Of a DNA stretch of 64,000 bases, positions 3,677 through 63,956 are shown piece by piece. Origin of the DNA: an uncultured Bacilli bacterium (GTDB taxonomy: Bacteria; Bacillota_I; Bacilli_A; RF39; UBA660); contig CAKORJ010000001.1 of NCBI GenBank assembly GCA_934101575.1, positions 474,519 through 538,518 on the forward strand, in the 5' to 3' direction. Within the stretch, counting starts at the first letter, position 1; the number at the start of each line of letters is the position of its first letter. Below the pieces are notes generated by a model. That model ran no database searches and was not told the DNA's origin. It saw only the letters and a program-made list of their open reading frames with translations. Both the position numbers and the translations under genes were made by a program.

Positions 3677-3701
3677 CCCTCCTTTTTATTCTTTTTTCTT
3701 T

Positions 3702-4352
3702 TTATAGACTTTTTTCTTCTGTTAATTCAAATATCAATACTAAATAATAAGTTCTATAGTCTGGTCTAGCACAGGTTATTAGAGTTAATTGTTTTTTTTG
3801 ACTGTGTCTGTATACGTCTACTCCATCGCCTTGTCTATCTTTATATTTTTTTACTAATTGATATGTGTATCTTTTTTCTTTATATGTTACATATGCTAGG
3901 TCTCCTAATGATAGGTTATCTAGTCTTGTAAAGTATCCATTCCATCCTGTTCCACTGTGTCCTGCTAGGATAAAGTTACTGTATTTATCATCTGGATATG
4001 TTGATCCTTCCATAATGGCTATATTTTGATCTACATTATTTCCAGAAGTTCCATATTTTACAAATCCCCTATTTAAATTTATTTTTGATATGTTTAATCT
4101 TCCTATATAGTTATAAGTTATTTTTTTCTTTTTTACTCTTCCTGATGTATCTCCAGTTGGTATTGTTTTATTACTTTCTGTAGGTGTTACTGCTTCGACA
4201 TACTCTGGTTCTTGTGATAATAAAATACTCATTTTTTCATAGACATTTGCTCTTTTTTCCATGAAATAATTGTGTCCTACTATAGCTATACCACAAATTA
4301 TTATGATAAGAGCAATTGTTACAAATTGTTTATTATTAAGTCCATCACTCAT
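3702..4352 (-). CDS. Sortase-family transpeptidase (membrane anchored)
   Basis: N-terminal TM segment. Catalytic His context ILAGHSG, catalytic Cys in the TLITC motif (QLTLITCARP), and a downstream Arg. Met5 is preferred as start (GAGGTG just upstream); the track ORF begins at 4364. Confidence 0.8.
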   Translation of the reverse strand: MSDGLNNKQFVTIALIIIICGIAIVGHNYFMEKRANVYEKMSILLSQEPEYVEAVTPTESNKTIPTGDTSGRVKKKKITYNYIGRLNISKINLNRGFVKYGTSGNNVDQNIAIMEGSTYPDDKYSNFILAGHSGTGWNGYFTRLDNLSLGDLAYVTYKEKRYTYQLVKKYKDRQGDGVDVYRHSQKKQLTLITCARPDYRTYYLVLIFELTEEKSL

Positions 4353-4428
4353 AATACACCTCATTATAGTAATATTATAACTATATTTTTTTAAAATCTC
4401 AATATTTTTGTAGAAAAAAAGATAGAAA

Positions 4429-41176: not shown

Positions 41177-43201
41177 TTAGGGTGTTATTATGAGACGAGA
41201 GGAAATACTAGCTACCGATGCGCCTCCGCTATAATTGGAATAAAATATACCAGAACTTGCACCATTTCGGTAATAACCTCCACGAAGAAACCAGGAATTA
41301 TTATGGTTGGCAAGATTGGAGCCATCACTATACCAGCCACTCGAACTACTTTTATATACCTCTTTTATTCCATCTCCTAACTTGCTTCTTATTCTAGTGG
41401 TATTGCTTGTGCTAAAACTGTATTTATCATAATATTTGTTATTTGGATAATCTATTCCAGTATATGATGTGTAATTGCCTGAATCATAAATTATTCCTTT
41501 ATATCCTGAATTTCTAGATGAACTATAACCACTCATCATTGTTGTTCCATCATTACTTACTATGTTTGCCATCGTATATTCATAGGATCCTCCGTTCACA
41601 TCATATACTCCGTATATATTATGTGTTGTTGAAGCACTTGGCCCATCTCTACTTTCTCCTATTAATGTTTTACTTTCTTTTATTGTTGGACTATCTAATA
41701 CTTTTATATTTTTTATATATCCTGTATCTGTTCCTTTTGTCCCTGAACTATCTTTTCTATATGTAAATGTTAATTCATATGTTCCTTTATCTAGTTTTTT
41801 TGATACATTATTATAGATTAATGCACTTTCTGTTGTTCCTAAATCTGTTCCTCCTATTTTTGTACTTGTTCCTGTATCTGATAAAGTTGTTCCATCTTTT
41901 GTTATTGTATAATATAAATAATCATAACTTGCACTTTCACTTGATACACTCCAGTCAAATGATATATATGTATTATTAGTTGGTGCTGTAAAACTAAATT
42001 TTAGATTAGTTGTTGTAGAATCTTTTCCTTGATTTGAACTTTTATATAAACCATCTGAAGAAGTCCACGGATATGTTGTATCATTTGTTACTGTTGCTGC
42101 TATTGCAGTTCCCCCAGTCATTGTTGTTGTATTTTTTTTAGTTTCATTATATTTATATGTTCCTTCTGCAGAACTTGATGTGCTTGAGGTTCCTCCACTT
42201 CTTCCTGTATAATAACTAGAACTATTATTTACATTTACTTCTTTACATGTACCATCTGTACATGTTCCATATTTTGAGTGTGATAGGTACGCTACTGCTC
42301 CCCATTCACTATTCTTTATCATATGTGTATCGGTAGTTGTGTTTAAACCATACTGATTACCACTATTTTTCATATTCATTATATTTGTTTCAAATGTACT
42401 TACACTTTGTTCTCTTACACTACTTAAATTTGGTTTTGTTGTTATATTACTTACTGTTCCTGTAAGTTCAAACTTTCCTATCCAGAATCCCTTTATTTCT
42501 TCATTTCCAAATGTAAATGCTGGATGGGTATATGTTTTATTATTACATGTATCATCAGTACATGTTGCATTAGTACTTTTTAATTTACATGTTTCTGAGG
42601 CTGCTCCATCTGTTCCACTTATTGAATCTTGACATGTTATTTCTCCAGTTGTTCCTGTACCATTTTCCCATGTTATGTCTATTTGTTGCGGATTGCTAGT
42701 CTTTGTTCCATCTGCATTATAATTCCATACTTTATATTTATATCTTGGTATCCAAACCTCCATTGTTAATATATCATCCATTGGTATTTCTGTTCCTACA
42801 CTTGCTGATAAGTATTTACTTCTATTAGTGCTACTTACTGTTACACTATTTGCCCATATTTTCTTATCATAATTATACCATCTATATTTTTCATTTGAAT
42901 TTTTTTTGTCAGCTTTCTTCCATGTTTCTGTATTTTCATCATAATATACTGGTATCATTCCTTCGTCTAGTTCTGGTTCATTTGCTCCACTTGTGTCTAC
43001 ATTATTTGCTTTCACTATTAATTCTATTGTTTTAGTTCCTAATTCAGTGTCTGAAAATATTGCATATGATGAGTTTATTTTATATGATATGCATCCTACT
43101 GTTAATAGGAATACTATACATAATATTGATAACTTTATTTTATTAAACTCTTTTATATTTTTATTTAAGAGTATATATATTGACTCCCTCGTTTGTTTCA
43201 T
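41177..43201 (-). CDS. Large secreted Thr/Ser/Asn-rich protein with SipW/TasA-type signal peptide; lectin-like folds suspected; function unknown
   Basis: 674 aa with AAGGTG SD. N-terminus is ..LSILCIVFLLTVGCISYKINSSYAIFSDTELG. Blocks include MIPVYYDE..W.KAD..YRWYNY..IWANSVTV, VWIPRYKYKVW, THPAFTFG..GFWIGKFE, and NSEWGAVAYLSHSKYG. The C-terminal WFLRGGYYRNGASSGIFY..ISSRLII is reminiscent of the end of FGE-sulfatase/C-type-lectin-like domains. A beta-sandwich-looking insert covers NLKFSFTAP..YIKNIKVLD. Confidence 0.65.
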   Translation of the reverse strand: MKQTRESIYILLNKNIKEFNKIKLSILCIVFLLTVGCISYKINSSYAIFSDTELGTKTIELIVKANNVDTSGANEPELDEGMIPVYYDENTETWKKADKKNSNEKYRWYNYDKKIWANSVTVSSTNRSKYLSASVGTEIPMDDILTMEVWIPRYKYKVWNYNADGTKTSNPQQIDITWENGTGTTGEITCQDSISGTDGAASETCKLKSTNATCTDDTCNNKTYTHPAFTFGNEEIKGFWIGKFELTGTVSNITTKPNLSSVREQSVSTFETNIMNMKNSGNQYGLNTTTDTHMIKNSEWGAVAYLSHSKYGTCTDGTCKEVNVNNSSSYYTGRSGGTSSTSSSAEGTYKYNETKKNTTTMTGGTAIAATVTNDTTYPWTSSDGLYKSSNQGKDSTTTNLKFSFTAPTNNTYISFDWSVSSESASYDYLYYTITKDGTTLSDTGTSTKIGGTDLGTTESALIYNNVSKKLDKGTYELTFTYRKDSSGTKGTDTGYIKNIKVLDSPTIKESKTLIGESRDGPSASTTHNIYGVYDVNGGSYEYTMANIVSNDGTTMMSGYSSSRNSGYKGIIYDSGNYTSYTGIDYPNNKYYDKYSFSTSNTTRIRSKLGDGIKEVYKSSSSGWYSDGSNLANHNNSWFLRGGYYRNGASSGIFYSNYSGGASVASISSRLIITP

Positions 43202-46973: not shown

Positions 46974-47801
46974 TTATTTTTTATGTCTTTTTCTTCTATA
47001 TTCTAAGTATTCTTCATTTGATAATTTTTCATCTTTTTTATATAGAGGTTCTTCTTCATAGTCACCATTATATAATTGTTCTGGGTTCTTTATTATTTGC
47101 TTTGTTATTTTATTTTCTTCCTCATAATGATTTTCGTATATTTCTTTTGCTGCTTCACTTAGAAGCATATTTTTTATTCCTAATTTTGAATCGTTAATTG
47201 CCATTTTTACTAGCCATTTTAATTTAGCTAGTGCGGCTAAACTTAAGTTTGTTTCTTTTTGTATTTGTCCTTCTTGATAACCTAGCTCATATAAGCCTAT
47301 TAATTCTTCGTTTTCTAAGCTATATGCATAACAACACTCATCAAAATAACCATCCATATATCCAAATGTGTAAACTTGTTCTTCTGTGTTTTCTGTTAAT
47401 TCATCATCGTACATAAAGATATCTATCATCTCACTATTGGCACATCTTACTTTATAGTAGTTTCTTTTATAAATATCTTTATATTTTTTACTTATTTTTC
47501 TAGGTGCTATGTTGTTTTCTCCATCATACTGAGCTAATTTCATGATTAATTCTGTCTTTTCTATTTGAAGTGTCTCTTTTGTTTCTTTTAATCTATCATT
47601 GGTTCCTGTGGTATATCCTCTTTCATAATTTGCATTGTTATCCTCTGTATACTCAAAATTTCCTATATATATTTCTTCATCAAAGTATCCATCTAGGTAA
47701 CCAAATGCTTTACAATTTCTGGCTATTGCTTGTTTTGATTTTTCTTTTATTTCTGTTTTGTATATAAAATTTTGTAATGGATTTTTGTTTTTTGTACTCA
47801 T
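46974..47801 (-). CDS. Hypothetical protein with two-fold internal repeat (FGY-x-DGYFDE .. GY-x-x-G)
   Basis: 275 aa. FGYLDGYFDEEIYIGNFEY..ERGYTTG recurs as FGYMDGYFDECCYAYSL..ELGYQEG, each followed by a helical charged segment. No family recognised. Confidence 0.5.
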   Translation of the reverse strand: MSTKNKNPLQNFIYKTEIKEKSKQAIARNCKAFGYLDGYFDEEIYIGNFEYTEDNNANYERGYTTGTNDRLKETKETLQIEKTELIMKLAQYDGENNIAPRKISKKYKDIYKRNYYKVRCANSEMIDIFMYDDELTENTEEQVYTFGYMDGYFDECCYAYSLENEELIGLYELGYQEGQIQKETNLSLAALAKLKWLVKMAINDSKLGIKNMLLSEAAKEIYENHYEEENKITKQIIKNPEQLYNGDYEEEPLYKKDEKLSNEEYLEYRRKRHKK

Positions 47802-50817: not shown

Positions 50818-51477
50818 TTACTTTTCTTTACTTTGTTTTTCTTTTGTTAATCTGATTTGTTCTTGTTTTCTATATTCTTCTATTTTCTTATGATTGCCAC
50901 TTAGTAATACTTCTGGTACTTTCATGCCTTTAAAGTCTCTTGGTTTGGTGTATACCGGATAATCAAGCAAATCTTTACTAAATGATTCACTTTCTAAAGA
51001 CTCTTTACTTATTACACCATCTATTAATCTTATTACGGCATCACTTATCATCATTGCAGGTAATTCTCCGCCAGTTAAAATAAAATCTCCTATTGAAATT
51101 TCTTCATCTACTAACAGTTTTATTCTATCATCAAAGCCTTCATAGTGTCCACATATTATGATTATGTGTTTTTTTTGCGATAATTGTTCTGCTTTTTTTT
51201 GATTAAATGTTGTCCCGGTTGGGGTTAATAATATTATATGTGAATCTTTTGTTTTTAAATGTTCTAGAGCATCATATATTGGTTGTATTTGTAAAACCAT
51301 GCCCGCTCCTCCGCCAAATGGTGTGTCATCTACTTTGCCATGAGGATCTGTTGTGTAATCTCTAAAGTTTATTATGTTTATTTTTATTTTTTTCTTTTCT
51401 ATTGCTCTTTTTATTATTGATTCTGTTAGAAATCCATTAAACATTTCTGGAAATAGTGTTAATATATCAATCTTCAT
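50818..51477 (-). CDS. trmD: tRNA (guanine37-N1)-methyltransferase
   Basis: 219 aa. Motifs MKIDILTLFPEMF, DDTPFGGGAGMVL, ICGHYEGFDDR, GDFILTGGELPAM, SGNHKKIEEYR. Confidence 0.93.
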   Translation of the reverse strand: MKIDILTLFPEMFNGFLTESIIKRAIEKKKIKINIINFRDYTTDPHGKVDDTPFGGGAGMVLQIQPIYDALEHLKTKDSHIILLTPTGTTFNQKKAEQLSQKKHIIIICGHYEGFDDRIKLLVDEEISIGDFILTGGELPAMMISDAVIRLIDGVISKESLESESFSKDLLDYPVYTKPRDFKGMKVPEVLLSGNHKKIEEYRKQEQIRLTKEKQSKEK

Positions 51478-51964
51478 TTAATAATCCCTCCACGTTTTTT
51501 AATATTATTCTGTCTTCTTTTATTACTTTTTCTATAAAGTTATCATTTAATGGAACTAAGACTTCTTCTTTGCCTTGTATTTCTAAAACATAATTTTTGT
51601 TTCCACAGTCTATTATATCTTTTACTTTACCTATGTTTTTTTCTTTATAATAACAATTTAAATTTATATAATCTTCAAATACGTATTCATTTTCTTTTAG
51701 ATTTAGGTCTTCTTTGTTTATATATATCTTTTTATTTCTTAGGTTTTCTACTAGATTTATATCTTCTAGATTTTTAAATGTTAATAATATATATTTGTTA
51801 TGTTTCCTTTGTTTTTTTAGTTTTACGTGGTGTTTTTCTTCACCAATATAAAAATTAAAATCTTCTTTTAGAATGTTATCTTTGTACTTAAAATCTGTTG
51901 TTAATTTTAATTCTCCTTTTAGTCCATGTGTACTATGTAGTTTCCCTATATAGATATATTTCAT
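51467..51964 (-). CDS. rimM: 16S rRNA processing protein RimM
   Basis: 165 aa. Contains GKLHSTHGLKGELKL and a PRC-barrel C-terminus. Overlaps trmD by 11 nt. Confidence 0.85.
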   Translation of the reverse strand: MKYIYIGKLHSTHGLKGELKLTTDFKYKDNILKEDFNFYIGEEKHHVKLKKQRKHNKYILLTFKNLEDINLVENLRNKKIYINKEDLNLKENEYVFEDYINLNCYYKEKNIGKVKDIIDCGNKNYVLEIQGKEEVLVPLNDNFIEKVIKEDRIILKNVEGLLNED

Positions 51965-52038
51965 ATAAAAACACCTCGAATCAATATTTATTATACATTA
52001 ATTTTTTGTTTTTTTAAAGAAAAAAAGACCTTATGGTC

Positions 52039-52731
52039 TTATGAATACTTTCTTTTTAATAGTATTGTTGATCCTACTATTATGCAAAGTGGAACTAAGT
52101 ACATTGCATAATCACTTATTCCTGTATTTGGATTTGATTCTGATCGTACTGTTGTTTCATCTTCATCTGTTGTTTGTGATGTTGTTACTGTTTTATCTGA
52201 ATCTAGGAATGCTATTTCTCCTAATGTTGTTGAACTTGTTGATTCTAAAATCATTCTATCTATATATACTTTTGATGTGTCTCCATCTTTAACTGCTGCT
52301 ACTGCTAAAACATATCCGTTATGTTTTCCAGATTCATATGTTAATCCACTTAATGTTATTTCATTATCACTTGATAATGTCCATTTTTCTAGATCTGCGG
52401 CTTTTACTGTTCCTATTTTGCTTTGAAATTGTGATTCATAGTCTCCAACACTTGATGCTGCTTTTGAATATTGATCTGTACTTGAATCAGTATTATCTAT
52501 TGTATATCTTGCTTTTACATAATCACTAAATTGTGTTTGATCTAGTGCTACGTATTTATAATAAAATTTATATTTATTTGCTGTATCTACTTGTACTATT
52601 TCTTTATCGCTACCGCCTATTGTTTTAGATATTGTAGCTACACTTGATAAACCTTGTTCATCGGCATTAACAGAACCTATAAAGCTTAATCCAATTACAA
52701 ATACAGTTATTATTGATAGTATCTTTTTCAT
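52039..52731 (-). CDS. Small sortase-substrate surface protein (NPNTG sorting signal)
   Basis: 230 aa with signal peptide ..SVNADEQ. C-terminus is NPNTG (52134..52120) + hydrophobic stretch + KRKYS. The body is Ser/Thr/Asp-rich with no recognised family. Confidence 0.65.
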   Translation of the reverse strand: MKKILSIITVFVIGLSFIGSVNADEQGLSSVATISKTIGGSDKEIVQVDTANKYKFYYKYVALDQTQFSDYVKARYTIDNTDSSTDQYSKAASSVGDYESQFQSKIGTVKAADLEKWTLSSDNEITLSGLTYESGKHNGYVLAVAAVKDGDTSKVYIDRMILESTSSTTLGEIAFLDSDKTVTTSQTTDEDETTVRSESNPNTGISDYAMYLVPLCIIVGSTILLKRKYS

Positions 52732-52806
52732 ATTATCACTCCTTATAATAATAATATAACTTTAATTTTTAGTTGTGTAAATGTTTTTTGAAATAAGTTT
52801 ACGTTC

Positions 52807-54039
52807 CTATTGTAAACTAGTGTCTAGTGGCAATTTTATTATTACTTTTGTATATTTATTTTCTTCTGATTTATAGATTAATTCTCCATTGTGTTGACTT
52901 ATTATTTCTTTTGATAAGGCTACACCTATACCACAACCTTTTTGTTTTGATGAGTAGAATAAATCCCCTATTTTTTCTAGATTTTCTTTTGAAATGCCAC
53001 ATCCATTATCTTTTATTTCTATTGTTACTGTTTTTTTGTTTTGTTTTATACTTATTTTAATTAATCCTTGTGTTTTTATTGCTTCACTACTATTTTTTAA
53101 TATGTTGATAAGTACTTGTTTTAATCTTTTGTAGTCTCCATTTATATATATTTCATCTACTGATTTGTATTCTATTTTTATATTTTTTGTTTTAAATATT
53201 GGCATTAGGCTATCTATAGTATCATTTATTAAATAGTCTATATCCATTATATCTTTTTTTATACTTATTTTTGTGTACTGACTAAAGTTATCCATTATAT
53301 CTAAAGCTCTATCTATTTCACTTAGAATTATTTCATTATATTTTTGGGATTTTTCTTTATTATCATAGTCTATCATTGATAGATATCCTTTACAGACTGC
53401 TATTGGGTTTTTTACTTCATGTGTTATTTTAAATAATGAATTTTTTAGATTTTTTTCTTTTTCTAGTTCTTTTAGGGTTTGATTTAATGATATAGTCTCC
53501 TCTATTTTACTTATTATATTTATTACTAATATTCCTATTAAATAGAATACTGTTAATGATATGATTATTTTTATTATTGTTTCTATATTTTGATTATTTG
53601 ATATGTAGTACTCTTCTATGGTCATTACTATTCCTTTTATACAGGTAAATGTTAGTATTATTGTTTCTTGTTTTTTTATTTTTATTGTTAATACTACAAA
53701 TATTAATATATAAAATAAATACTCTAGGACTGTTATTATTGTGTTTTCTCCCATACTACAGTTAAATATTATTAGTATTAGTGATATTACTATTGTTGTG
53801 TGTTTTCTGTTATATAATATTGATATTATAATAGGCATGTTTACTAATAGGACATCATAAGGCATTTCTTTATTATAGTACTTTATTAATAAAAATAAAC
53901 TTGTGATGCTTGCTATATCTATTAGGGTATCTTTTTTTAACTTTCCTATATTTTTATAATAAGCTTTTAATATTGTTACTGCTAAAACTGGAAATATTAT
54001 TAATATTACATCTAAAATTATTGTATCAAAAAATGACAT
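52807..54039 (-). CDS. Orphan sensor histidine kinase with polytopic N-terminal membrane domain
   Basis: 410 aa with about 6 TM segments. H-box ITHEVKNPIAV, N-box LINILKNSSEAI, G1 IKDNGCGI, G2 GCGIGVALSKEI. No response regulator is adjacent. Confidence 0.82.
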   Translation of the reverse strand: MSFFDTIILDVILIIFPVLAVTILKAYYKNIGKLKKDTLIDIASITSLFLLIKYYNKEMPYDVLLVNMPIIISILYNRKHTTIVISLILIIFNCSMGENTIITVLEYLFYILIFVVLTIKIKKQETIILTFTCIKGIVMTIEEYYISNNQNIETIIKIIISLTVFYLIGILVINIISKIEETISLNQTLKELEKEKNLKNSLFKITHEVKNPIAVCKGYLSMIDYDNKEKSQKYNEIILSEIDRALDIMDNFSQYTKISIKKDIMDIDYLINDTIDSLMPIFKTKNIKIEYKSVDEIYINGDYKRLKQVLINILKNSSEAIKTQGLIKISIKQNKKTVTIEIKDNGCGISKENLEKIGDLFYSSKQKGCGIGVALSKEIISQHNGELIYKSEENKYTKVIIKLPLDTSLQ

Positions 54040-54101
54040 ATTATCACCTGTTTATATAATATAGGAAATAAATGTCATATTTTGTCGAATTTTGTCTTAT
54101 A

Positions 54102-54413
54102 TTATTTTATTTCGTCGATATATTTTTTTAATTGTTTTGAGTTTGGACCTAGTATTATTTTTAACTGATTGTCTAATTCTACTATTCCTTTTGCTCCTAG
54201 ATTTATTATTGCATCTTTATTTACTTTTTCTATATCTTGTAATGTTACAATAAATCTTGATAAGTTTACTTCTGTATCTATTATGTTATCTTTTCCTCCT
54301 AGATACTCTACTAATTTATTCATATCTAGTTTTACATCTTTTTTGTTTATTTTTAGTATTGCTAATAATACTATAACAAATACTACAATAATTATAAAAT
54401 ATTCATAAGTCAT
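54102..54413 (-). CDS. Membrane-tethered PTS EIIB(Glc)-like domain lacking the phospho-accepting Cys
   Basis: 103 aa. N-terminal TM, then LVEYLGGKDNIIDTEVNLSRFIVTLQD..INLGAKGIV. This matches the EIIB pattern l..lGG..NI....hCaTRLRf, with Cys replaced by Asn-Leu. Confidence 0.55.
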   Translation of the reverse strand: MTYEYFIIIVVFVIVLLAILKINKKDVKLDMNKLVEYLGGKDNIIDTEVNLSRFIVTLQDIEKVNKDAIINLGAKGIVELDNQLKIILGPNSKQLKKYIDEIK

Positions 54414-54555
54414 AAAATCACCTATAGTAATTATACAATAAAACTGTCAAAAATAAAACATTTTTTCATACTATTTAGTAAATAGGTATTAGTAGTGTTT
54501 TTGTTATGTCATTATGAATATCTTATATTAGAAAGAAAAAAGGGGCGTGATATAT

Positions 54556-54960
54556 ATGAATAATAGCTCATGTTGTATTAATGACATTTTAGAAGTTATA
54601 AATGTTTTGCAGAATCAAGCTGAAAAAATTGATGATATTCCTAGTTCTTGTGATAGACCTTTTTTAGGAGGGGTTAATAGTTCTAATACTTTTGTTTATA
54701 ATACTAGACCTGTTACTTTGTATACTTCTAATAATACATTATTTAGTGCACCTTATAGTTTAAATGGTGTTGATGGTACTTCTAATGTATTTAGGGTTGA
54801 AAAAGTTACTGATAGTACTGCTACTTTGATGGTTCTTGCTAATAATCCTGATGATACTAGTGTTTTTCCATATGTGAAGACTGATTCATACATAATTGTA
54901 AACAGTAATTGTGTTTGTGCTATTAGATGTTTGGCTGATACATTTGTTGATTGTGTATAG
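54556..54960 (+). CDS. Spore coat/exosporium protein, CotY/CotZ/ExsY family (copy 1)
   Basis: Cys-rich. Motifs CCINDILEVINVLQ, SCDRPFLGG, NTRPVTLY, FRVEKV, and the C-terminal CVCAIRCL (compare B. subtilis CotZ CFCAINCL). Start placed at the ATG at 54556, since the track GTG is too close to the SD. Confidence 0.72.
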   Translation: MNNSSCCINDILEVINVLQNQAEKIDDIPSSCDRPFLGGVNSSNTFVYNTRPVTLYTSNNTLFSAPYSLNGVDGTSNVFRVEKVTDSTATLMVLANNPDDTSVFPYVKTDSYIIVNSNCVCAIRCLADTFVDCV

Positions 54961-54975
54961 AAAGGAGGTTAGTCT

Positions 54976-55377
54976 ATGTGTTCAAATGATAATAACTGCG
55001 ATGGTTTAAGAGATACTTTATGTACTATTATAAATCTTCAAAAACAAGGACAATGTATAGATGATGGAATTAAATCTTGTGATAGACCTTATTTAGGGCT
55101 TAATAATAATACTGCATATAATACTAGGCCTATAACATTCTACACTTGTCCTAATAACACATTATGGTCTATGCCATATACACTTAATGGTACTGATGGT
55201 GTTTCTAATGTTTTTAGAGTTGAGACTGCTAATGATTGTTGCTGTACTTGTAGGGTTTTAGCTCCTTCTGATGATGCTACTAATCCTTATCAAGCTACTG
55301 ATTCATTCTTTACTATTAATCTTAACTGTGTTGGAGCTATTAGATGTCTTAATGATACGTATGTTTCTTGTATTTAA
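54976..55377 (+). CDS. Spore coat/exosporium protein, CotY/CotZ/ExsY family (copy 2)
   Basis: 133 aa with GGAGGT SD. Motifs SCDRPYLG, NTRPITFY, FRVETA, CVGAIRCL. Tandem paralogue of the preceding gene. Confidence 0.72.
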   Translation: MCSNDNNCDGLRDTLCTIINLQKQGQCIDDGIKSCDRPYLGLNNNTAYNTRPITFYTCPNNTLWSMPYTLNGTDGVSNVFRVETANDCCCTCRVLAPSDDATNPYQATDSFFTINLNCVGAIRCLNDTYVSCI

Positions 55378-55400
55378 AAAACTTCAAAAAGAAGTTTTTT
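55376..55400. terminator. Hairpin terminator between convergent genes
   Basis: AAAAACTTC-AAAAA-GAAGTTTTTT. Confidence 0.5.
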
Positions 55401-55704
55401 ATTTTTGATAAATCTTAATTATGTCATTTATATTTATTGAATCATTATCTAGTGTTATTAACCTGTTTCCTATTTTGCCTGCTATTCTTGTTTCATACTT
55501 TTTGTCTTTTGTTACGATTACTACGTCTTTGTCAAAGATATAGGTTCCACTCTTTGATAATTTATTTATAAAATCTATTGGGGATTCATTTATTGATTCT
55601 TCTTTTCTTTCTATATCTAATCTATCATCTAAAAATGAATAATAAGCTTTTGTGTTATTGTTTATGTTTCCTATATTTGGTTTATATATCTCTGGTTTTT
55701 TCAT
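55399..55704 (-). CDS. Hypothetical small protein
   Basis: 101 aa with GGAGGA SD. No family recognised. Its position next to the coat genes is only suggestive. Confidence 0.45.
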   Translation of the reverse strand: MKKPEIYKPNIGNINNNTKAYYSFLDDRLDIERKEESINESPIDFINKLSKSGTYIFDKDVVIVTKDKKYETRIAGKIGNRLITLDNDSININDIIKIYQK

Positions 55705-55773
55705 AAGTCCTCCTTTATTATTATATTTTATGTTTTGAGGAGTAAAAAATTCTAAAAAAGATATAATAATACT

Positions 55774-56862
55774 ATGAAAACAAATAAATCTTTTATATAC
55801 GTATTATTAATTTTTTTTGTTATAAGTATTAATTCTATTTATAGTTTTTCTTCTTTTTTGACTTATGATACTTATAGTTTTATTATTAGACAGGCTTGTT
55901 TTTATCTTGTTGGGATTATTTTTATTTTCATTTGTATTAAGATTGGTCCTAATAGGATTCTTAAATATTCTTTTTTTATATATTTATTTAATGTTTTAAT
56001 ACTTGTTTTAGTTCTTTTTATTGGGAAGGAGGTTAATGGTACTAAAGCATGGTTTAATGTTCCTTTTATTGGAACTTTTCAACCTAGTGAGTTTATGAAA
56101 ATTGGTATTATTTTGTTACTTGCTAAGGTTATTAGTAAACAAAAGATTAATTGTTTTAAGGATGAACTTGTTCTAGTCGTTAAGGCTTTTGTTATTTTAT
56201 TAATTCCTTCTTTTATTACTTTTTTAGAACCTGATACTGGGGCTGTACTTATATATATTGTTATTACTTTTGTTATGTTATTTACTTCTAAGATTAGAAT
56301 AAGATGGTTTTTGATTCTTTTTGGAATTGTTTGTGTGTTAGGATTTGGTTTGTTTTATATTTATATTTTTAATACTGATTTATTTATTAAGATTTTTGGT
56401 AATAGCATGTTTTATCGTTTTGATAGGATATTTGATTGGAGTAAGTCTTCGGGAATGCAACTTGAAAATTCTGTTATTTCTATAGGTTCTAGTGGTTTAT
56501 TTGGGCATGGTATTAGTAATATTTTGTTATATTTTCCGGAAGGTCATACTGATTTTATATTTGCTTCTTTTGCTTCTATATATGGTCTTACTGGGATGAT
56601 GATTCTTGTTTGTTCTATTGTTTGGTTTGATATTTTACTTATCAGAACTAAGACTAAGAATTTAGAATATAAGTATATTATTTCTGGGATGTGTGCGGCA
56701 CTTTTTTATCAACAGATTCAGAATATTTCTATGACTATTGGACTTATGCCTATTACAGGGATTACTTTGCCTTTTATTTCTTATGGTGGTAGTAGTTTAA
56801 TATCTTATATGATTCTTTTAGGAATTGTACTTAGTATTAGAAAAGAAGAAGGTAATAATTGA
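55774..56862 (+). CDS. FtsW/RodA/SpoVE-family peptidoglycan glycosyltransferase (SEDS)
   Basis: 362 aa with about 10 TM segments. Motifs FQPSEFMKIGIILLLA, EPDTGAVL, HTDFIFA, GLMPITGITLPFISYGGSS. Confidence 0.87.
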   Translation: MKTNKSFIYVLLIFFVISINSIYSFSSFLTYDTYSFIIRQACFYLVGIIFIFICIKIGPNRILKYSFFIYLFNVLILVLVLFIGKEVNGTKAWFNVPFIGTFQPSEFMKIGIILLLAKVISKQKINCFKDELVLVVKAFVILLIPSFITFLEPDTGAVLIYIVITFVMLFTSKIRIRWFLILFGIVCVLGFGLFYIYIFNTDLFIKIFGNSMFYRFDRIFDWSKSSGMQLENSVISIGSSGLFGHGISNILLYFPEGHTDFIFASFASIYGLTGMMILVCSIVWFDILLIRTKTKNLEYKYIISGMCAALFYQQIQNISMTIGLMPITGITLPFISYGGSSLISYMILLGIVLSIRKEEGNN

Positions 56863-56873
56863 TGCTTTTATAG

Positions 56874-56917
56874 AAAAAGATATAAGAAGTTTTAATGATT
56901 TCTTATATCTTTTTTTA
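56874..56917. terminator. Bidirectional rho-independent terminator (copy 1 of a duplicated hairpin)
   Basis: Perfect 12-bp stem AAGATATAAGAA (56877..56888) / TTCTTATATCTT (56900..56911) with A-run and T-run on either side. Serves the convergent SEDS gene and the glycine-rich protein gene. Confidence 0.65.
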
Positions 56918-59449
56918 TTCTATATTAAACTTTTGTTTATCATAATTGTAATTATGAGTTATTTCTTCTTCTGTTAGTGCTTTTCCATATAATTTCATTT
57001 GATTTATTTTTACATTTGAATAACTTGATGTTTGATATCTTCCTATTGTTAAGGGATTATTCGAATGAGAAAACGCGCTTGATGTGTTTGTTCTTCTATT
57101 TTTTAATACACCATTTATGTATATACTTTCTACGTTATCTTTATAAGTTGCTACTACATTATAAGTCTTTTTTAACTGTATTGTTCCGCCGGATAGATAT
57201 GGAAAATCTGAAGTTGATTGTCTTGTTCCGAATACTACTGTATTATCAGCATTTAATTCTATTGTGTAACCGAACCATTTAACAAATAGTACACTTCTTG
57301 AATTTTTTACTATAGATTGTTTTGAAAATGTTAAGTCTATTGTGAATTCTGTTGGGGCAAGTGTTTGAGAATATGGTATTGTTGCATAATCATCTACCCC
57401 ATCTAATAATAGATAGTTTTTATACCAACTTGATCCCGTTACTGTAGCATTTCCACTTTTACCACTTAAATCTTTCCATGTTGATGTTGAGGATAAATGA
57501 TTTTCTCCTGAATTTGAGAATCCATCTAACCAAAGGTTTAGATTATCCTGAACATATCCATTTATGTTGTTATCGTATGCTGTTATTCTTCTTCCATTTG
57601 ATGTTTGTACTGTGTCTTCTTCTGTTATTGCTGTAAAGTTTTTATTGTCACTTGATACATATGTTTTTGTGTTATGATATACTCTACTATCTCCAAAATA
57701 ATTCCATACTGCTACTTCATCTAAGTCATATGTCTCTTCTAAATCTACTGTTATGCATTGATTAGTGGATGAACTTGATGGCATTGAGTAGTTTCCGTAT
57801 GTTATATCTCCGTCTGTTATTTGTGAATATGCTCTGGTTGTATCATTATATTGAGAAGTTGTTCCTGTTACGGTCTTTCCTTTTGCTATGTTTACTCCAT
57901 CTTTTATTGCCTGTAATTCTATCCAATGATTATCATTATTACTACTATTATAGCCACTACAGTCTTTTATATATCTCACATTATTTAATTTAGTATTTAC
58001 TTTTTTGGGTTTACGTCCTATGTAAATGATTTTTGCATAACCATCTTTTTTAGTTTGATCTTCTTTTATTTTTCCGTTTAGGAAATATTTATTACTATAA
58101 TGCATTGTTGCGTTTGTATGAGTTATTGTTGTGGAATTTTTTACTGAATTCACTCCGGCATAGCCACTTATATATGAGGATCCTCCACAGGAATAGGTTT
58201 CTGAAGTCCCTCCGCCATAGTAGCCTCCACCTCCGCCTGGACCGTATTTTGAGCTTACTATTGCTCCTACCCCAAATCCAGAATCTGTTCCGCTTGTTCC
58301 TGTTCCACCAGCTGTTTGTGAACCGCCTGTACATGTATAACTTCTATCACTTCTTGTATAATAGCCTTGACTTCCGTATAGATATCCGCCTGCTCCACCG
58401 TTATAACTGTATCCAGAACTTGCTGTTCCCATATAGTTACTTGATCCTGCTCCGCCTCCGGCTACCATTATTCTTGAAATCAATGATTTTGTATCATTCC
58501 ATGTTCCACCTACTAATCTAACATCTGTTGCTCCTCCGCCTGAACCATAGTATGTGTTTCCTCCAGTATACTGAAGACTTTTTCCACCACCATTATAGCC
58601 ACCGTTTTCTCCACAACATGTTTTTGAGGAACTACAAACGCACCTTTTTCCAGCACCACCTACATAAATATATAATTTTTCTCCTTCTTTTAGATTTATA
58701 TAGCCTGATGTTATTGATCCTTTTCCACCTTCGTATAATTCATTATCTTCTTGGTAAGATGCTCCTCCTTGAGCCCCTCCTAATTCTACATAATAATATC
58801 CATCTCTTAAAACTGTATACTCTTGAGCATTTCCAGTATAGGTAAATGTTTTAGGCTCTCCTTCTCTATCCATACTTTCTGGTCTTTGTTCTGCTTCTAT
58901 TTTTAGTTTTAAGAAGGCTTTATAATCCTCAAGTTTTGATATCTCTTCTTCTTTAGACTTATCAAGCCATATTCTTAATTTATAGTTTATTATTTCACTT
59001 GCATATATTACATCACTGTCAATTATATTTTTTATTTTTTCCAAGGACATTGGTCCATATTCTTCACCATTTATTTCAAGTCCTACTTTTATGTATTTTG
59101 TATCAAGTACTTTTCCTGTATAGGTACTTGGTACTTCATTTATTAATTTTAAATCATATTTAGCTGGGGATGATCCAATATTTTTTAGATTGAAATCATA
59201 TGTTTCCTCTTGTAACAAGCCTTCTTCATCACCCATAATAGATATTTTTTTATTGATTGTTTCGTAGTTTTCGGTTAGTTTTAATTTTACACTTCCTGTT
59301 TTTATTACTTGTTCATTACTATCGCTATTAACTTCCTTTAAAATAGCATAACTAGTACCACAAAAAAGAGATACTATTCCAAAAAGAGCAATAAAAAGAC
59401 TTATTATATATTTTTTGTTCTTAATGACCCCCCCCCCCCGAGAAAACAT
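56915..59449 (-). CDS. Secreted glycine-rich-domain / discoidin / LamG-like protein, paralogue 1; poly-G tract in codons 4-7 (phase-variation candidate)
   Basis: 844 aa from the ATG at 59449. Signal-like IISLFIALFGIVSLFCGTSYAILKE. An N-terminal ~170-aa beta-rich domain (VIKTGSVKLKL..AFLKLKIEAEQ) is TasA/camelysin-like in pattern. The Gly-rich domain includes FTYTGNAQEYTVLRDGYYYVELGGAQGG, LYIYVGGAG, GGGATDVRL, and SRIMVAGGGAG. The F5/8-type-C-like domain includes NVRYIKDC..HWIELQAIKDG..QCITVDLEETYDLDEVAVWNYF. The LamG-like C-terminus includes LNLWLDG..LLLDGVDDYATIP..YGKALTEEEITHNY. The SD (AAGGAG) actually serves a GTG at 59462, which is out of frame with 12 G. Confidence 0.85.
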   Translation of the reverse strand: MFSRGGGVIKNKKYIISLFIALFGIVSLFCGTSYAILKEVNSDSNEQVIKTGSVKLKLTENYETINKKISIMGDEEGLLQEETYDFNLKNIGSSPAKYDLKLINEVPSTYTGKVLDTKYIKVGLEINGEEYGPMSLEKIKNIIDSDVIYASEIINYKLRIWLDKSKEEEISKLEDYKAFLKLKIEAEQRPESMDREGEPKTFTYTGNAQEYTVLRDGYYYVELGGAQGGASYQEDNELYEGGKGSITSGYINLKEGEKLYIYVGGAGKRCVCSSSKTCCGENGGYNGGGKSLQYTGGNTYYGSGGGATDVRLVGGTWNDTKSLISRIMVAGGGAGSSNYMGTASSGYSYNGGAGGYLYGSQGYYTRSDRSYTCTGGSQTAGGTGTSGTDSGFGVGAIVSSKYGPGGGGGYYGGGTSETYSCGGSSYISGYAGVNSVKNSTTITHTNATMHYSNKYFLNGKIKEDQTKKDGYAKIIYIGRKPKKVNTKLNNVRYIKDCSGYNSSNNDNHWIELQAIKDGVNIAKGKTVTGTTSQYNDTTRAYSQITDGDITYGNYSMPSSSSTNQCITVDLEETYDLDEVAVWNYFGDSRVYHNTKTYVSSDNKNFTAITEEDTVQTSNGRRITAYDNNINGYVQDNLNLWLDGFSNSGENHLSSTSTWKDLSGKSGNATVTGSSWYKNYLLLDGVDDYATIPYSQTLAPTEFTIDLTFSKQSIVKNSRSVLFVKWFGYTIELNADNTVVFGTRQSTSDFPYLSGGTIQLKKTYNVVATYKDNVESIYINGVLKNRRTNTSSAFSHSNNPLTIGRYQTSSYSNVKINQMKLYGKALTEEEITHNYNYDKQKFNIE
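59428..59439 (-). repeat. Homopolymeric G(12) tract (C12 on plus strand) in the 5' coding end of paralogue 1
   Basis: Counted directly: plus-strand C at 59428..59439. Confidence 0.97.
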
Positions 59450-59567
59450 TTGTTCGTTTCACTTTGATCACTCCTTAGTATTATTTATACATTTATTTTA
59501 TAACAAATTTGTTATTTATTCAAGGAATAATTCACCTTTATTTTTCTAGATATGTTAATAATTTTTT

Positions 59568-59854
59568 TTAAATAGTTTTGTCTTCGACTTTGTTTATAAC
59601 AAAACAGCTTTTGCCTAAATCTTTAAAGGATGCTCCTGAGTGATATAATATTTTTTTATCTATTATTATAAATATATCATATAGATTATCTTTTTTATTA
59701 TTGTTAGTTTATTATACTGAGTTTGATATTTTCTTATTAGTTCTTCGTTTGTATTTTTTTTGTGTAAAGTGTTATTTGGTTTTTTTGTTTTTGTTAGGAT
59801 ATCTAATAGTTTTTTCTCTGCATAGTTATCTATTATGATTATTTCTTGTTTTGA
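59568..59854 (-). pseudogene. Decayed 3' fragment resembling the C-terminal region of ORF6N-domain (KilA-N-related) proteins
   Basis: My minus-strand translation: SKQEIIIIDNYAEKKLLDILTKTKK..NSV**TNNNKKDNLYDIFIIIDKKILYHSGASFKDLGKSCFVINKVEDKTI*. It has two in-frame TAA stops, no start and no N-terminal part. The IIDNY.. and DRFLIID..VYHIGASLKDLGKK.FAF blocks are remembered from ORF6N-family C-termini (not searched). Confidence 0.35.
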
Positions 59855-59954
59855 TTATATTATTCGTTTGTTATCTCCTTTTTTGTTTGTAACTATACTA
59901 TATACTAATTGATTTTTATTGTAAAACTGGGAATTTTGTGTTTTGTATTAAAAA

Positions 59955-59989
59955 AAGATATAAGAATTTTTAATATTTTCTTATATCTT
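59955..59989 (-). terminator. Rho-independent terminator downstream of paralogue 2 (copy 2 of the duplicated hairpin)
   Basis: Same perfect 12-bp stem AAGATATAAGAA / TTCTTATATCTT as at 56877..56911, with an 11-nt loop differing at a few positions and flanking A- and T-runs. Confidence 0.6.
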
Positions 59990-60046
59990 TTTTTGTTTTT
60001 GATGTGTTTATTTGTTTTGAAATGTTATAAAGTAATAAATTTGTTT

Positions 60047-62217
60047 TTATTCTAAATTAAATCTTTGTTTATCGTAGTTGTAGTTGTGTGTTATTTCTTC
60101 TTTTGTTAGTTCACCACTAAAGATTTGGAATAGTTTTATATTACCTTTAAAGTATGTTCCACTTGGCCTTTTTCCTATATATGATTTTGATTCTGTCCAA
60201 CTCCAATATTCTGTTGAAGATAGTTTTGGTATTTCTTTGTTATTTACATATATTGTTTTATCAGTTAAACTTCTAAATATTACATCTACTTTGTAATATT
60301 TATCTAAAGTTATTGTTCCTGCGTCATACATATTTGTTGCGCTTACTAATGATGTGATAAATTTGTTATTTTGATATAGTCCTATTGCGGCATTATTTAA
60401 GTTATGTCCAAATATTATTTGACTGTCTGTACTATTAGTTTTATATATGAATGAATATGTCATTGGAAATGTATATTCTTTGTTTGTAAATGCTACATAG
60501 TCGTTGGTTCCATCGAAGGATAGACTATCATTTATCCAAGTTGCTCCGGATACTGTTGCTGTATAACCAGAAGAATTTGTAGATAGATTTTTCCAAGTTG
60601 TGGTTGTATTATTTCTTGTTGTTCCTGTATTTGCTAGTCCATCTAACCACATTGTCATTTTATTTCTTGCTGAATAACCATTTATGTTATCTATATAGGC
60701 ATTTACTCTTATTCCATTTGATGTTTGTATGACATTTTCATCAACTATTTCTGTGAAATTTGTATTATCACTTGATACGGAAGTTATTGTATTGTGATAT
60801 ACTCTTGTATCTCCAAAGTAGTTCCATACTGCTACTTCATCTAAATCATAGGTGTTTTCTAAATCAACTGTTATGCATTGATTACTATTGTCTTCGGATG
60901 TAGTTGTTGCAACATAATTTGAATTATCAATGTCCCCAGTTGTTAGAATTAGAAAATTACTAGTATCTGTATGTTGTGGGGTAAATGTTCCTGTTACTGT
61001 TTTTCCTTTGGCTATGTTTACTCCGTCTTTTATAGCCTCTATTTCTATCCAATGCTTACCTGGATTAGCACTATTGCTTGTACTACAATCTTTTATATAT
61101 CTAACGTTATTAAGTTTTGTGTTTTTTCTTTGAGGTTTGTTATGAGCATAAGTTATTTTGGCATATCCGTTTCCAGAGTTTTGTCCTTCTATCATTTGTC
61201 CACCTACAAAATATTTACTGCTGTAGTGGATTGTTTGATTTGTATGAGTGATTGTTGTTGATTCTTTTACCGAATTTACTCCGGCATAACCTGATATATA
61301 TGATGAGCCTCCGGCTCCTCCACCATTTCTTCCACTTGCTCCAGAGCCACCATAGTATCCACCACCTCCAGCACCAGAGCCATGAGAATAATCAGAATCG
61401 TATCCACCGTTTCCTCCTTTTGCTAGCTGTCCTTTTGTTCCTAAAACAACATATTGCGATTGATAACTATCGGCCTCTCGTTTCCCTGAGCCTATTGGAC
61501 CACTTGTTTTTTGTTGGCCGCCATGACCACCACCTAAAAAGTTTTCTGATAGATCTCCTCCGTCGGTTCCATATAAGGTCCCTCCGTCTCCTCCGGTTAC
61601 ATAATCATTAAATATTGCTCCGCCTCCGCCTCCTCCTGCTACCATTATTCTTGATATTAGCGAAGACATATCATCCCAAGAACCGCTTGTTAATCTTACA
61701 TCTGTTGCACCACCACCTGTTCCTGCTTGATGATTAGCAGAACCTCCACCATTAAATCCTCCTGATGTGTATTCTACATTTGATGAGGCTGTTGTTCCTT
61801 TTCCTCCAACATAAAAATAAAGTTTTTCTCCTTTTTTTAGTTTTATGTAACCACTTGTTTTTGCTCCTAATCCAGCATATGCTTTTGAAGCTCCTCCTGA
61901 TGCTCCTTCTAATTCTATATAGTAATAACCATCTTTTGGAATTGTATATTCTTGTGGTTTTCCAGTATAATTAAATGTTTTTTCATATTCAAATAGGGGT
62001 TCTATTTCTATTGTTTTTGTTCCTGTTATTTCATCTGAAAATAATGCATAAGAATTAGTTATTTTATATGATATAAATCCTACACTAAAAAGAAATATTA
62101 TTATAAATAAAGATAAAACTACCGTATTTAATTCTCTTATATCTTTATTTAATAGATTATAAAAATACCCCCCCCCCCGAACGAATGTTCACTGTCTTGA
62201 TTTTGTTCTTTCTTCAT
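60047..62217 (-). CDS. Secreted glycine-rich-domain / discoidin / LamG-like protein, paralogue 2; frameshifted at a poly-G(11) tract in this sequence (phase OFF or pseudogene)
   Basis: The ATG at 62217 (AAGGAGG 10 nt upstream) encodes MKKEQNQDSEHSF, followed by 11 G. The frame that is open from 62167 to the stop at 60047 encodes YFYNLLNKDIRELNTVVLSLFIIIFLFSVGFISYKITNSYALFSDEITGTKTIEIEPLFEYEKTFNYTGKPQEYTIPKDGYYYIELEGASGG.. and continues into the 540-aa track ORF (MSSLISRIMVAGGGGGG..). That frame is +1 relative to the ATG. Confidence 0.8.
62168..62178 (-). repeat. Homopolymeric G(11) tract (C11 on plus strand) in the 5' coding end of paralogue 2
   Basis: Counted directly: plus-strand C at 62168..62178. 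Confidence 0.97.
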
Positions 62218-62292
62218 ACTTTTACGTCCTCCTTAGTATTTTATATATTAATAATACATTAAAAATACTACTTTTTCAAGCAGTATTATTTT

Positions 62293-63481: not shown

Positions 63482-63494
63482 ATATTCTCTTCAT

Positions 63495-63570
63495 GGTGGC
63501 TCCAGTTGGAATCGAACCAACGACACCAGGATTTTCAGTCCTGTGCTCTACCGACTGAGCTATGAAGCCA
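63495..63570 (-). tRNA. tRNA-Phe (anticodon GAA)
   Basis: Hand-folded: acceptor GGCTTCA/TGGAGCC, anticodon stem CAGGA/TCCTG with loop CTGAAAA, T-arm GTTGG-TTCGATT-CCAAC, encoded CCA. Confidence 0.9.
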
Positions 63571-63579
63571 AAAATAATT

Positions 63580-63655
63580 GGCGGTTCCGACGGGACTTGA
63601 ACCCGCGATCTCCTGCGTGACAGGCAGGCGTGATAACCACTACACCACGGAACCA
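63580..63655 (-). tRNA. tRNA-Asp (anticodon GUC)
   Basis: GGTTCCGTGGTGTAGTGGTTATCACGCCTGCCTGTCACGCAGGAGATCGCGGGTTCAAGTCCCGTCGGAACCGCCA. Anticodon loop is CTGTCAC. Confidence 0.92.
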
Positions 63656-63656
63656 T

Positions 63657-63734
<78 letters not shown>

Positions 63735-63750
63735 TATAAAAATTTTTCAT

Positions 63751-63843
63751 GGCGGAGGAAAAGGGATTCGAACCCCTGCGCCGCTCGCACGACCTCCCGG
63801 TTTTCAAGACCGGTCCCTTCAACCAGACTTGGGTATTCCTCCG
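63751..63843 (-). tRNA. tRNA-Ser (anticodon UGA)
   Basis: Acceptor GGAGGAA/TTCCTCC, anticodon stem CCGGT/ACCGG with loop CTTGAAA, long variable arm, encoded CCA. Confidence 0.9.
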
Positions 63844-63867
63844 TATAAATAACTAATAAAAATAAAT

Positions 63868-63956
63868 GGTGCCTAAGGCCGGACTTGAACCGGCACGAGG
63901 TTTGATCCTCGCAGGATTTTAAGTCCTGTGCGTCTACCAATTTCGCCACTCAGGCA
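63868..63956 (-). tRNA. tRNA-Leu (anticodon UAA)
   Basis: Acceptor GCCTGAG/CTTAGGC, anticodon stem CAGGA/TCCTG with loop CTTAAAA, long variable arm, encoded CCA. Confidence 0.9.

Follow-up and report, generated by a model that had tools for sequence, protein, structure and literature searches.

Two paralogous genes with glycine-rich and lectin-like domains

The window analysed here is a 64-kb stretch (64,000 nucleotides (nt), ~27% GC) of contig CAKORJ010000001.1 from an uncultured Bacilli bacterium. It contains two tandem genes on the minus strand, copy 1 and copy 2, which encode modular proteins with an ALK/LTK-type glycine-rich domain (GRD) and lectin-like domains, and each of which carries a long run of G's close to its start codon. 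Copy 1 (56915-59449) is an intact open reading frame (ORF) of 844 amino acids (aa) from an ATG at 59447-59449. Copy 2 (60047-62217) starts at an ATG at 62215-62217 and is frameshifted in the window, with a stop codon (62149-62151) after 22 codons; its longest listed ORF is 540 aa (60047-61669). Adding one G to its tract of 11 restores, in silico, an ORF of 723 aa, and this reconstruction has the same length and an identical N-terminus as P0153, a protein called in other samples. The in-frame form is also present on four metagenome contigs (L008, L011, L012 and L013).

An earlier reading of this DNA, the original prediction, described a tandem paralogous cassette of giant secreted proteins. The pairing is well founded: an alignment of the copies spanning 693 aa shows 46% identity (E 2e-146), and judged from their sequences this is paralogy far above chance. 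'Giant' is an overstatement, because the proteins are only 844 and 723 aa long. The ORFs and motifs quoted in that prediction were all found, namely FTYTGNAQEYTVLRDGYYYVELGGAQGG and FNYTGKPQEYTIPKDGYYYIELEGASGG, LYIYVGG and LYFYVGG, GGGATDVRL, SRIMVAGGG, NVRYIKDC...AIKDGVNIAKGKTVTGT, NQCITVDLE.TYDLDEVAVWNYFGD.RVYHNT and LT.EEITHNYNYDKQ.FN.E, the last of these lying in the helix of the LamG domain with which both proteins end (...EEITHNYNYDKQ.FN.E).

Copy 1 opens with a putative signal peptide (aa 1-35, 59345-59449), recognisable by KNKK, a hydrophobic stretch and SYA before an I, and continues with a predicted Ig/PapD-like β-sandwich (aa ~36-195, 58865-59344), the GRD (aa ~196-478, 58016-58864), which was assigned by Pfam, profile and Foldseek searches, a discoidin/CBM32-like domain (aa ~479-632, 57554-58015) and a Laminin_G_3 domain (aa ~633-844, 56918-57553). 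Copy 2 has a 17-aa leader, a putative signal peptide reaching to about A58, a GRD (aa ~80-359, 61142-61981), a discoidin-like domain (aa ~360-516, 60671-61141) and a Laminin_G_3 domain (aa ~517-723, 60050-60670). Identity between the copies changes along this order: 64%, 44% and 68% in the N-terminal, Gly-rich and C-terminal parts of the GRD, 69% in the discoidin-like domain, 27% in the LamG domain and 85% over the C-terminal 20 aa. The discoidin-like domains are therefore less alike than the 'nearly identical' of the original prediction, but it was right that the core is conserved while the distal LamG domain diverges.

The assignment of the GRD draws on three kinds of search. PF12810 (ALK_LTK_GRD; gathering score 24.5 bits) matches aa 213-476 of copy 1 with 128.3 bits (E 6.5e-37) and aa 95-357 of copy 2 with 140.1 bits (E 1.6e-40), and a family profile built from 80 sequences matches ALK ectodomain chains (E 1.5e-8) and LTK (E 1.2e-4) in the PDB. 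With an AlphaFold 2 (AF2) model of copy 1 as query (mean predicted local distance difference test (pLDDT) 82.7, predicted template-modelling score (pTM) 0.77), Foldseek returns the TG domains of LTK and ALK (7nx1, 7nx0, 9g5i, 7lrz and related entries) with E 6e-8 to 1.4e-6 and probability 1.00, at a moderate superposition (target-normalised template-modelling (TM) score 0.38-0.45, root-mean-square deviation ~10 A). The Gly-rich stretch of this model (aa ~336-425) contains almost no DSSP helix or strand at a pLDDT that is mostly 80-97, and as modelled it is consistent with a polyglycine-II lattice. An ALK/LTK-type glycine-rich domain was thus correctly proposed for both copies. Neither protein has a Pfam match to a kinase or EGF-like domain, the C-terminal domain is LamG, and the two are not receptor kinases.

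The LamG-like domain was likewise rightly recognised in both copies. Laminin_G_3 (gathering score 27.6 bits) scores 66.9 bits in copy 1 (E 2.8e-18); in copy 2 it is unlisted at E<=0.01 on the whole protein and scores 51.1 bits (E 2.2e-13) when the C-terminal 227 aa are scanned alone. The family profile matches the LamG-type S-layer protein 4qvs (E 6.5e-6), and the LamG part of the copy 1 model resembles lectin folds in Foldseek, including the trans-sialidase lectin, BoNT Hc-N, AbnA domain 4 and the lectin module of Streptococcus sanguinis PilC. The proposed F5/8 type C domain fared less evenly. Neither copy has a Pfam match above the cut-off, while many family members have precomputed PF00754 or PF22633 matches, the family profile matches a CBM32 structure weakly (4a3z, E 0.006) and aa ~491-625 of copy 1 form a confident all-beta domain in the AF2 model. 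Two cysteines in this domain, C497 and C565, are invariant.

The remaining part of copy 1 is its N-terminal domain of ~160 aa, for which a beta-rich fold had been anticipated; the model (pLDDT 78) is a β-sandwich of Ig/PapD/ASH-like type that has no counterpart in copy 2. Upstream of it, the putative signal peptide reads KNKK-YIISLFIALFGIVSLF-CGTSYA before the I, and AF2 places a helix at aa 12-29; the equivalent region of copy 2 is a K/R-rich VVLSLFIIIFLFSVGFI-SYKITNSYA before an L. NCBIfam gives no match for either protein or for their N-termini, its SipW-type signal model included.

Poly-G tracts that vary between near-identical strains

The G runs are exceptional in this AT-rich DNA. Copy 1 has a G12 tract at 59428-59439, at codons 4-8 of the ATG frame and upstream of the hydrophobic core, and copy 2 a G11 tract at 62168-62178, which is out of frame. 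These are the only G or C homopolymers of at least seven in the 64-kb window, and the number of G runs of at least nine expected from 100 shuffles is 0.00. In each gene the encoded N-terminus resembles a signal peptide, and the run lies after the start codon but before the hydrophobic core of that N-terminus.

What a change in tract length would do depends on the start codons available. Upstream of the copy 1 tract, a ribosome-binding site (RBS) with the Shine-Dalgarno sequence AAGGAG stands 8 nt before a GTG (59460-59476 in all, the GTG at 59460-59462). In copy 2 the sequence AAGGAGG stands 10 nt before the ATG (62215-62234, the ATG at 62215-62217), and an internal GTG at 62190-62192 lacks a Shine-Dalgarno sequence and is in a different frame from that ATG. 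With a copy 1 tract of 2 mod 3, such as G11, the body would be in frame with the RBS-served GTG and the protein would have 848 aa. With 0 mod 3, as in the window, only the ATG 13 nt downstream is in frame, it has no Shine-Dalgarno sequence and it gives 844 aa; translation from the GTG would then stop after 13 codons. With 1 mod 3 there is no full-length frame. For copy 2, a tract of 0 mod 3 puts the RBS-served ATG in frame (723 aa at G12, 722 aa at G9), one of 1 mod 3 opens the internal GTG without a Shine-Dalgarno sequence (714/715 aa), and one of 2 mod 3, as in the window, leaves the gene OFF. Read in this way, copy 2 with its G11 is predicted to be OFF in the window genome, and copy 1 is probably weakly expressed or OFF because its in-frame ATG lacks a Shine-Dalgarno sequence while the RBS-served GTG is out of frame.

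The tracts differ between otherwise identical strains. Among metagenome contigs from different samples, seven (L008-L014) match the window at 99.88-99.98% identity, L013 over ~9 kb and the other six over ~10.3 kb. Across the window and these contigs, the copy 2 tract is G10 once, G11 twice, G12 five times and G13 once; the copy 1 tract, window included, is G10 in four cases, G12 in two, G11 in one and an interrupted G7TG4 in one. L010 has no mismatch to the window, and its two gaps are the two tracts. In a further contig, L007, which matches the window at 99.4% over 8.7 kb, the copy 1 tract is interrupted and in frame, a 'locked' version (GCGGGTGGGG), and an ATG stands where copy 1 of the window has its GTG start. 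Gene calls for the orthologues, taken from 90%-identity clusters, fall into the corresponding lengths: 848 aa (MKRTNVFSGGGV...), 844 aa (MFSRGGGV...) and 773 aa (from an internal Met) for copy 1, and 722/723, 714 and 680 aa for copy 2. All three frame outcomes occur for the orthologues of both copies, each on several to many contigs. Expression that can be switched gene by gene, as the original prediction had it, is supported by this polymorphism among near-identical strains, which points to the poly-G runs as the putative switch.

A second homopolymer in the leader also varies. The poly-A run just after the ATG differs among paralogous leaders, with A7 in ATGAAAAAAATAC and A6 in ATGAAAAAATAC (L015 9960-10050; assembly ERZ857965). 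The G length that is in frame shifts accordingly (G9 versus G10), and the poly-A run could be a second slippery site.

Each copy appears to be a self-contained cassette. Promoter-like sites lie at 59495-59523 for copy 1 (TTGAAT-17-TAAAAT) and at 62251-62279 for copy 2 (TTGAAA-17-TATTAT), both on the minus strand and both fitting TTGAA(A/T)-17-TA(T/A)(T/A)AT. Such sites are not enriched over shuffles in the AT-rich window and are candidates only. Between promoter-like site and leader, both cassettes carry a conserved 5' untranslated region (UTR), AATACTAAGG(A/T)G, that includes the RBS, and this promoter/UTR block is conserved upstream of paralogues elsewhere. Downstream, at 56874-56914 for copy 1 and 59950-59994 for copy 2 (minus strand), nearly identical AT-rich hairpins followed by a U-run are predicted to act as terminators (-13.3 kcal/mol, z -6.4, and -15 kcal/mol, z -6.9, respectively; in each case 0 of 200 shuffles fold as well). 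A consensus terminator scan of the window returned nothing because the hairpins have no G-C pairs, and they were detected by direct folding. With its own promoter-like site, UTR and terminator, each copy would therefore be an independent transcription unit, conserved at its ends and variable in its interior.

Related cassettes and the genomic setting

The family extends well beyond the window. A word-indexed search scored 8000 candidates and found 1573 relatives at E<=1e-5, and an exhaustive search of 1.84 billion cluster representatives gave 7417 matches, 447 of them at E<=1e-30. The GRD-discoidin unit recurs there in proteins of up to 7,663 aa. Four relatives (P0309, P0311, P0312 and P0326) are ~7,000-7,700 aa long, with up to 9 query-matching stretches each, the best in the GRD region; these, outside the window, are the truly giant members of the domain family. 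Four others (P0055, P0083, P0074 and P0053) carry the GRD-discoidin unit behind prepilin-like N-termini such as MKNKGFTLIELL, with PF07963 matched in P0055, and from their sequences would be modular type IV pilins. A leader Gly run of at least three is present in 56 of the 182 proteins retrieved (120 matches and 62 cluster members), and many of the remaining ones are N-terminally truncated gene calls. A scan of genome contigs added six distant or fragmentary loci, whose MAG labels disagree (Lachnospiraceae, Bacteroidaceae, 'uncultured Bacilli'), and one of viral contigs only five distant GRD relatives.

The leader itself recurs many times over in a sister genome. When sequences were scanned for the leader followed by seven or more G's, 13 sites turned up on 11 contigs (among L022-L051) of assembly ERZ857965, whose PheS is 89% identical to that of the window. 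With coverage at 11-12x, the 13 sites look like they belong to one genome. Ten of the tracts are G10, two G11 and one G9. The bodies behind these leaders are diverse: GRD-discoidin-LamG, GRD-only, Flg_new-repeat, DUF6273 and bodies without a Pfam match. The window holds a third gene of this kind, of 674 aa, directly after pheST (41177-43201, minus strand). It has the AATACTAAGG UTR and the same signal module as copy 2 (59% identity over 54 aa, E 2e-16) with no poly-G tract, and its body is Ser/Thr/Gly-rich with no Pfam match. Homologues of that body stand behind G10 leaders in the sister genome (L046 and L026), and by sequence we regard the gene as a tract-less relative of the cassette family.

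Cassette number and content also vary between relatives, as seen in L007 and L015, so the family is neither single-copy nor invariant. L007 lacks copy 2 and joins copy 1 to a neighbourhood of RecX, RNA polymerase omega (RpoZ) and patatin genes instead of to copy 2 and PrsW. Its 99.4% match spans 50915-59585 of the window, with positions 1-5005 of the contig diverging from 59585 onward, and the junction reflects either a chimeric assembly or a rearrangement at the edge of the cassette. In a more distant relative, represented by the 857-kb contig L015, the same CSD-PrsW genes are followed by two different cassettes of the long type.

The setting of the two genes is chromosomal. Their neighbours are of housekeeping and sporulation type (PrsW, FtsW/SpoVE, two CotZ genes, a histidine kinase, fmt, TrmD, RimM, PheST and a tRNA cluster), and a gene-context check found no phage genes among them. 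A prophage origin of copies 1 and 2 was considered and rejected from this gene context. The Rfam scan of the window detected only tRNAs. Five tRNA genes (Phe, Asp, Met, Ser and Leu) are clustered at 63494-63955 (minus strand) at the window edge, just past PrsW. On the other side, two tandem Cys-rich genes of the CotZ family, of spore-coat or exosporium type (137 and 133 aa; 54547-55377, plus strand), adjoin an FtsW/RodA/SpoVE gene, an arrangement that suggests that the host forms spores. Contigs near-identical to the window come mostly from Hadza gut metagenomes, and the window PheS is present on 104 contigs, the longest of 708 kb; among named entries, the PheS sequences closest to it are 78-80% identical and labelled 'MAG: ... 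[Bacilli bacterium]'. The host is an uncultured human-gut Firmicute of a 'Bacilli bacterium' lineage.

Two further genes of the window deserve mention. A 230-aa protein (52039-52731, minus strand) has an N-terminal signal peptide and, at its C-terminus, NPNTG followed by a hydrophobic stretch and KRK; it has no Pfam match and, from its sequence, looks like a sortase substrate. A 275-aa acidic protein (46974-47801, minus strand), also without a Pfam match, contains an internally duplicated segment bearing FGY[LM]DGYFDE.

Interpretation, alternatives and known systems

We consider it probable that the two genes belong to a slipped-strand, phase-variable family of Sec-exported modular proteins, probably glycan-binding, that are encoded in self-contained cassettes. 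Each cassette would consist of a promoter-like site, the AATACTAAGG(A/T)G UTR, an RBS, a short leader with 9-13 G's, a body and an AT-rich hairpin terminator, the body running from an optional Ig/PapD-like stalk through the ALK/LTK-type GRD and the discoidin/CBM32-like domain to the LamG/ConA-like domain. From the tract differences we infer slipped-strand mispairing at the G run during replication, which would add or remove one G and so decide whether the body can be read from the RBS-served start codon. Each gene would therefore be turned ON or OFF in a heritable and reversible way, whatever the state of its neighbour. The Gly codons belong to the n-region of a signal peptide that would be cleaved off, so in-frame changes in the tract would leave the mature protein unaltered. 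The outcome would be a stochastic, combinatorial display of adhesins or lectins that bind glycans or surfaces, with the distal LamG domain setting specificity, and in the gut such a display would help the cell to colonise, or to evade immunity or phages. A surface-binding role, probably towards glycans, is suggested by the signal peptides, the two invariant cysteines, the lectin-type folds, the pilin-grafted relatives and the GRD of phage tail fibres; roles in adhesion, antigenic variation or as a phage receptor may be envisaged.

More tentatively, the promoter, AATACTAAGG UTR, poly-G leader and signal peptide may form a portable module that has been copied before at least 13 exoprotein genes, giving a genome-wide phase-variable set in an uncultured, probably spore-forming gut lineage that is abundant in Hadza samples. 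The switching mechanism is already known from other bacteria; the novelty lies in the host lineage, in how large and modular the family is and in its ALK-type GRD architecture. Our literature search found nothing on poly-G switching in such Firmicutes.

Several points weigh against a phase-variable family of exported, glycan-binding proteins. First, copy 1 has a full-length ORF in two of the three frames, and for that reason its ON or OFF state is not readable from sequence alone. Second, homopolymer lengths in short-read assemblies are error-prone to some degree. Third, 12 of the 13 tracts in ERZ857965 are out of frame with the ATG, where two-thirds would be expected (p ~0.04, binomial estimate), an excess of OFF states that could reflect selection for OFF or something not understood. 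Fourth, the Sec export predicted for both proteins derives from signal peptides read by eye, and neither protein has a Pfam match to an anchoring motif (LPXTG, SLH, CWB2 or choline-binding repeats). Fifth, F5_F8_type_C_2 (PF22633) stays under its Pfam cut-off of 27.8 bits in both, at 24.9 bits in copy 1 and 20.0-21.3 bits in copy 2. Finally, a ligand or phenotype is not known for any bacterial GRD protein, and our literature search returned nothing about this family.

Among the alternatives, one concerns function only and is compatible with phase variation: the proteins could be domesticated modules of phage tail-fibre type that act against phages, as decoys or in a manner resembling superinfection exclusion, or that target other bacteria, rather than adhering to the host or to glycans. 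The GRD is 34-39% identical over ~130-180 aa to a Clostridioides difficile phage protein annotated 'glycine rich protein / tail fiber protein' and matches PHROGs 1589, 5811 and 7388 with E 1e-24 to 1e-42, the discoidin-like region matches a 'tail protein' PHROG (8.4e-11), and BFVD is rich in phage proteins that join a GRD to ConA-like domains. There is a precedent in CwpV, a phage-blocking surface protein that is phase-variable and has a variable C-terminus (PMC4737114). Yet PADLOC gives no match, no phage genes lie nearby, and the copies have predicted Sec-type signal peptides, which virion proteins lack. We regard this reading as unlikely.

It is rather less probable that the proteins of the long type are fibre subunits or tip proteins like TasA or camelysin, with an N-domain that undergoes donor-strand exchange after SipW-type cleavage. 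This would follow the resemblance to TasA/camelysin that the original prediction saw in the N-terminal domain, where the SYA[IL][LF] cleavage region and the strand K-T-G-S-V-x-L-x-L-T-E-N look TasA-like by eye. hhalign aligns exactly that stretch, over 69 columns with E 0.0063, but at a probability of 6% and against a TasA sequence entered by hand. Similarly, the fourth-ranked Foldseek match is a TasA-like archaeal bundling pilin (7ueg, AbpA; E 8.7e-3, TM 0.33-0.35), but TM does not exceed 0.45, the top matches are generic ASH/PapD/MSP sandwiches and TasA itself is outside the top 50. For this domain no Peptidase_M73 or other Pfam or NCBIfam match appears at E<=10 in copy 1 or at E<=1 in 17 relatives. 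A profile search of the PDB was likewise negative, and copy 2 does not have the domain at all. The resemblance to TasA/camelysin, weak and non-specific in all of these searches, is not established.

Very unlikely, in our view, is that the tract differences are homopolymer errors of sequencing or assembly and that copy 2 is a decaying pseudogene of a duplicated gene, with no programmed switch. The comparison sequences all come from short-read metagenome assemblies, in which long G runs are error-prone, and copy 2 is indeed disrupted in the window. However, a G run of at least nine is kept at the same position of the leader in diverged paralogues and in different species whose genomes have 24-30% GC, whereas under neutral decay runs of this kind would become interrupted. 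Beyond its tract, copy 2 is free of lesions and is 99.9% identical to its in-frame versions, the three frames each recur on many independent contigs, and interrupted 'locked' alleles coexist with perfect tracts. That the proteins belong to the spore surface (exosporium or coat) is hardly credible: copy 1 is followed directly, on its downstream side, by two CotZ-family genes and an FtsW/RodA/SpoVE gene, and YutH lies near the equivalent locus in L015, but coat proteins made in the mother cell are not expected to carry Sec signal peptides, family members occur in many unrelated genomic contexts, and the genes next to the copies are encoded on the other strand and have signals of their own.

If the phase-variable reading is true, a commensal gut Firmicute would maintain combinatorial, stochastic surface repertoires. 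Repertoires of this sort are mainly documented for small-genome pathogens, where they arise from simple-sequence repeats, and for Bacteroides and C. difficile, where they arise from DNA inversions. Confirmation would mean that homopolymer contingency switching, classically tied to Campylobacter, Neisseria, Haemophilus and mycoplasmas, acts on a large family of secreted proteins in an uncultured commensal gut Firmicute, and that many 'truncated' or 'frameshifted' gene calls in metagenome-assembled genomes of this kind are OFF states and not pseudogenes. It would also open the first way into the function of the ALK-type Gly-rich domain of bacteria and phages as a surface-binding module, in a tractable bacterial context for a domain that travels with lectin-like domains both here and in phage tail fibres.

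The closest structural comparison is with the TG domain of ALK and LTK (PF12810; 7LRZ, 7NWZ, 7NX0/1). The likeness comprises the Pfam domain, the profile match and the Foldseek probability of 1.0, and the Gly-rich stretch of the copy 1 model is mostly confident with nearly no helix or sheet, as polyglycine-II packing predicts. In contrast to the receptors, the window proteins have no EGF-like, transmembrane or kinase parts, no ligand of ALKAL type is expected, and their GRD follows a bacterial signal peptide and is joined to discoidin-like and LamG domains; the kinship is at the domain level only. Streptococcus sanguinis PilC (7OA8) shares the lectin module matched by the LamG part of copy 1, and the relatives P0055 and P0083 carry the GRD-discoidin unit behind a prepilin N-terminus, whereas the window proteins have a predicted Sec-type signal and not a class III (prepilin) one. 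Phage proteins, including those of the three PHROGs and the C. difficile tail fibre, have the GRD in common with the family, often together with ConA-like domains; they have neither signal peptides nor poly-G leaders and belong to tail modules, whereas the window genes stand amid housekeeping genes.

As a switch, the system invites comparison with CwpV of C. difficile, a surface protein that is phase-variable, is linked to aggregation and phage resistance, and combines a conserved part with a C-terminus that differs between strains (PMC3080850, PMC4737114). Both cases concern a gut Firmicute and a phase-variable surface protein, predicted as such for the window, in which a conserved part is joined to a variable C-terminal part. 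CwpV is a single gene, is switched by RecV-mediated DNA inversion and is anchored through cell-wall-binding repeats, whereas the window family would use poly-G frameshifting, is multi-copy, has no anchor motif that we could find and bears no sequence relationship to CwpV. In mechanism, the nearest parallels are the contingency loci: the poly-G genes of Campylobacter jejuni, the opa genes of Neisseria, with repeats in the signal-peptide region, and lic1 of Haemophilus, with alternative start codons. As in those loci, a homopolymer in the 5' coding region sets the frame, a repeat in the leader or signal part leaves the mature protein unaffected, many loci per genome would switch independently, and two start codons in different frames recall lic1. 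The family differs in its host, an uncultured, probably spore-forming, low-GC gut Firmicute and not a small-genome Gram-negative pathogen; it differs too in what would be switched, GRD/lectin-like exoproteins, and in that one portable leader-signal module serves unrelated bodies.

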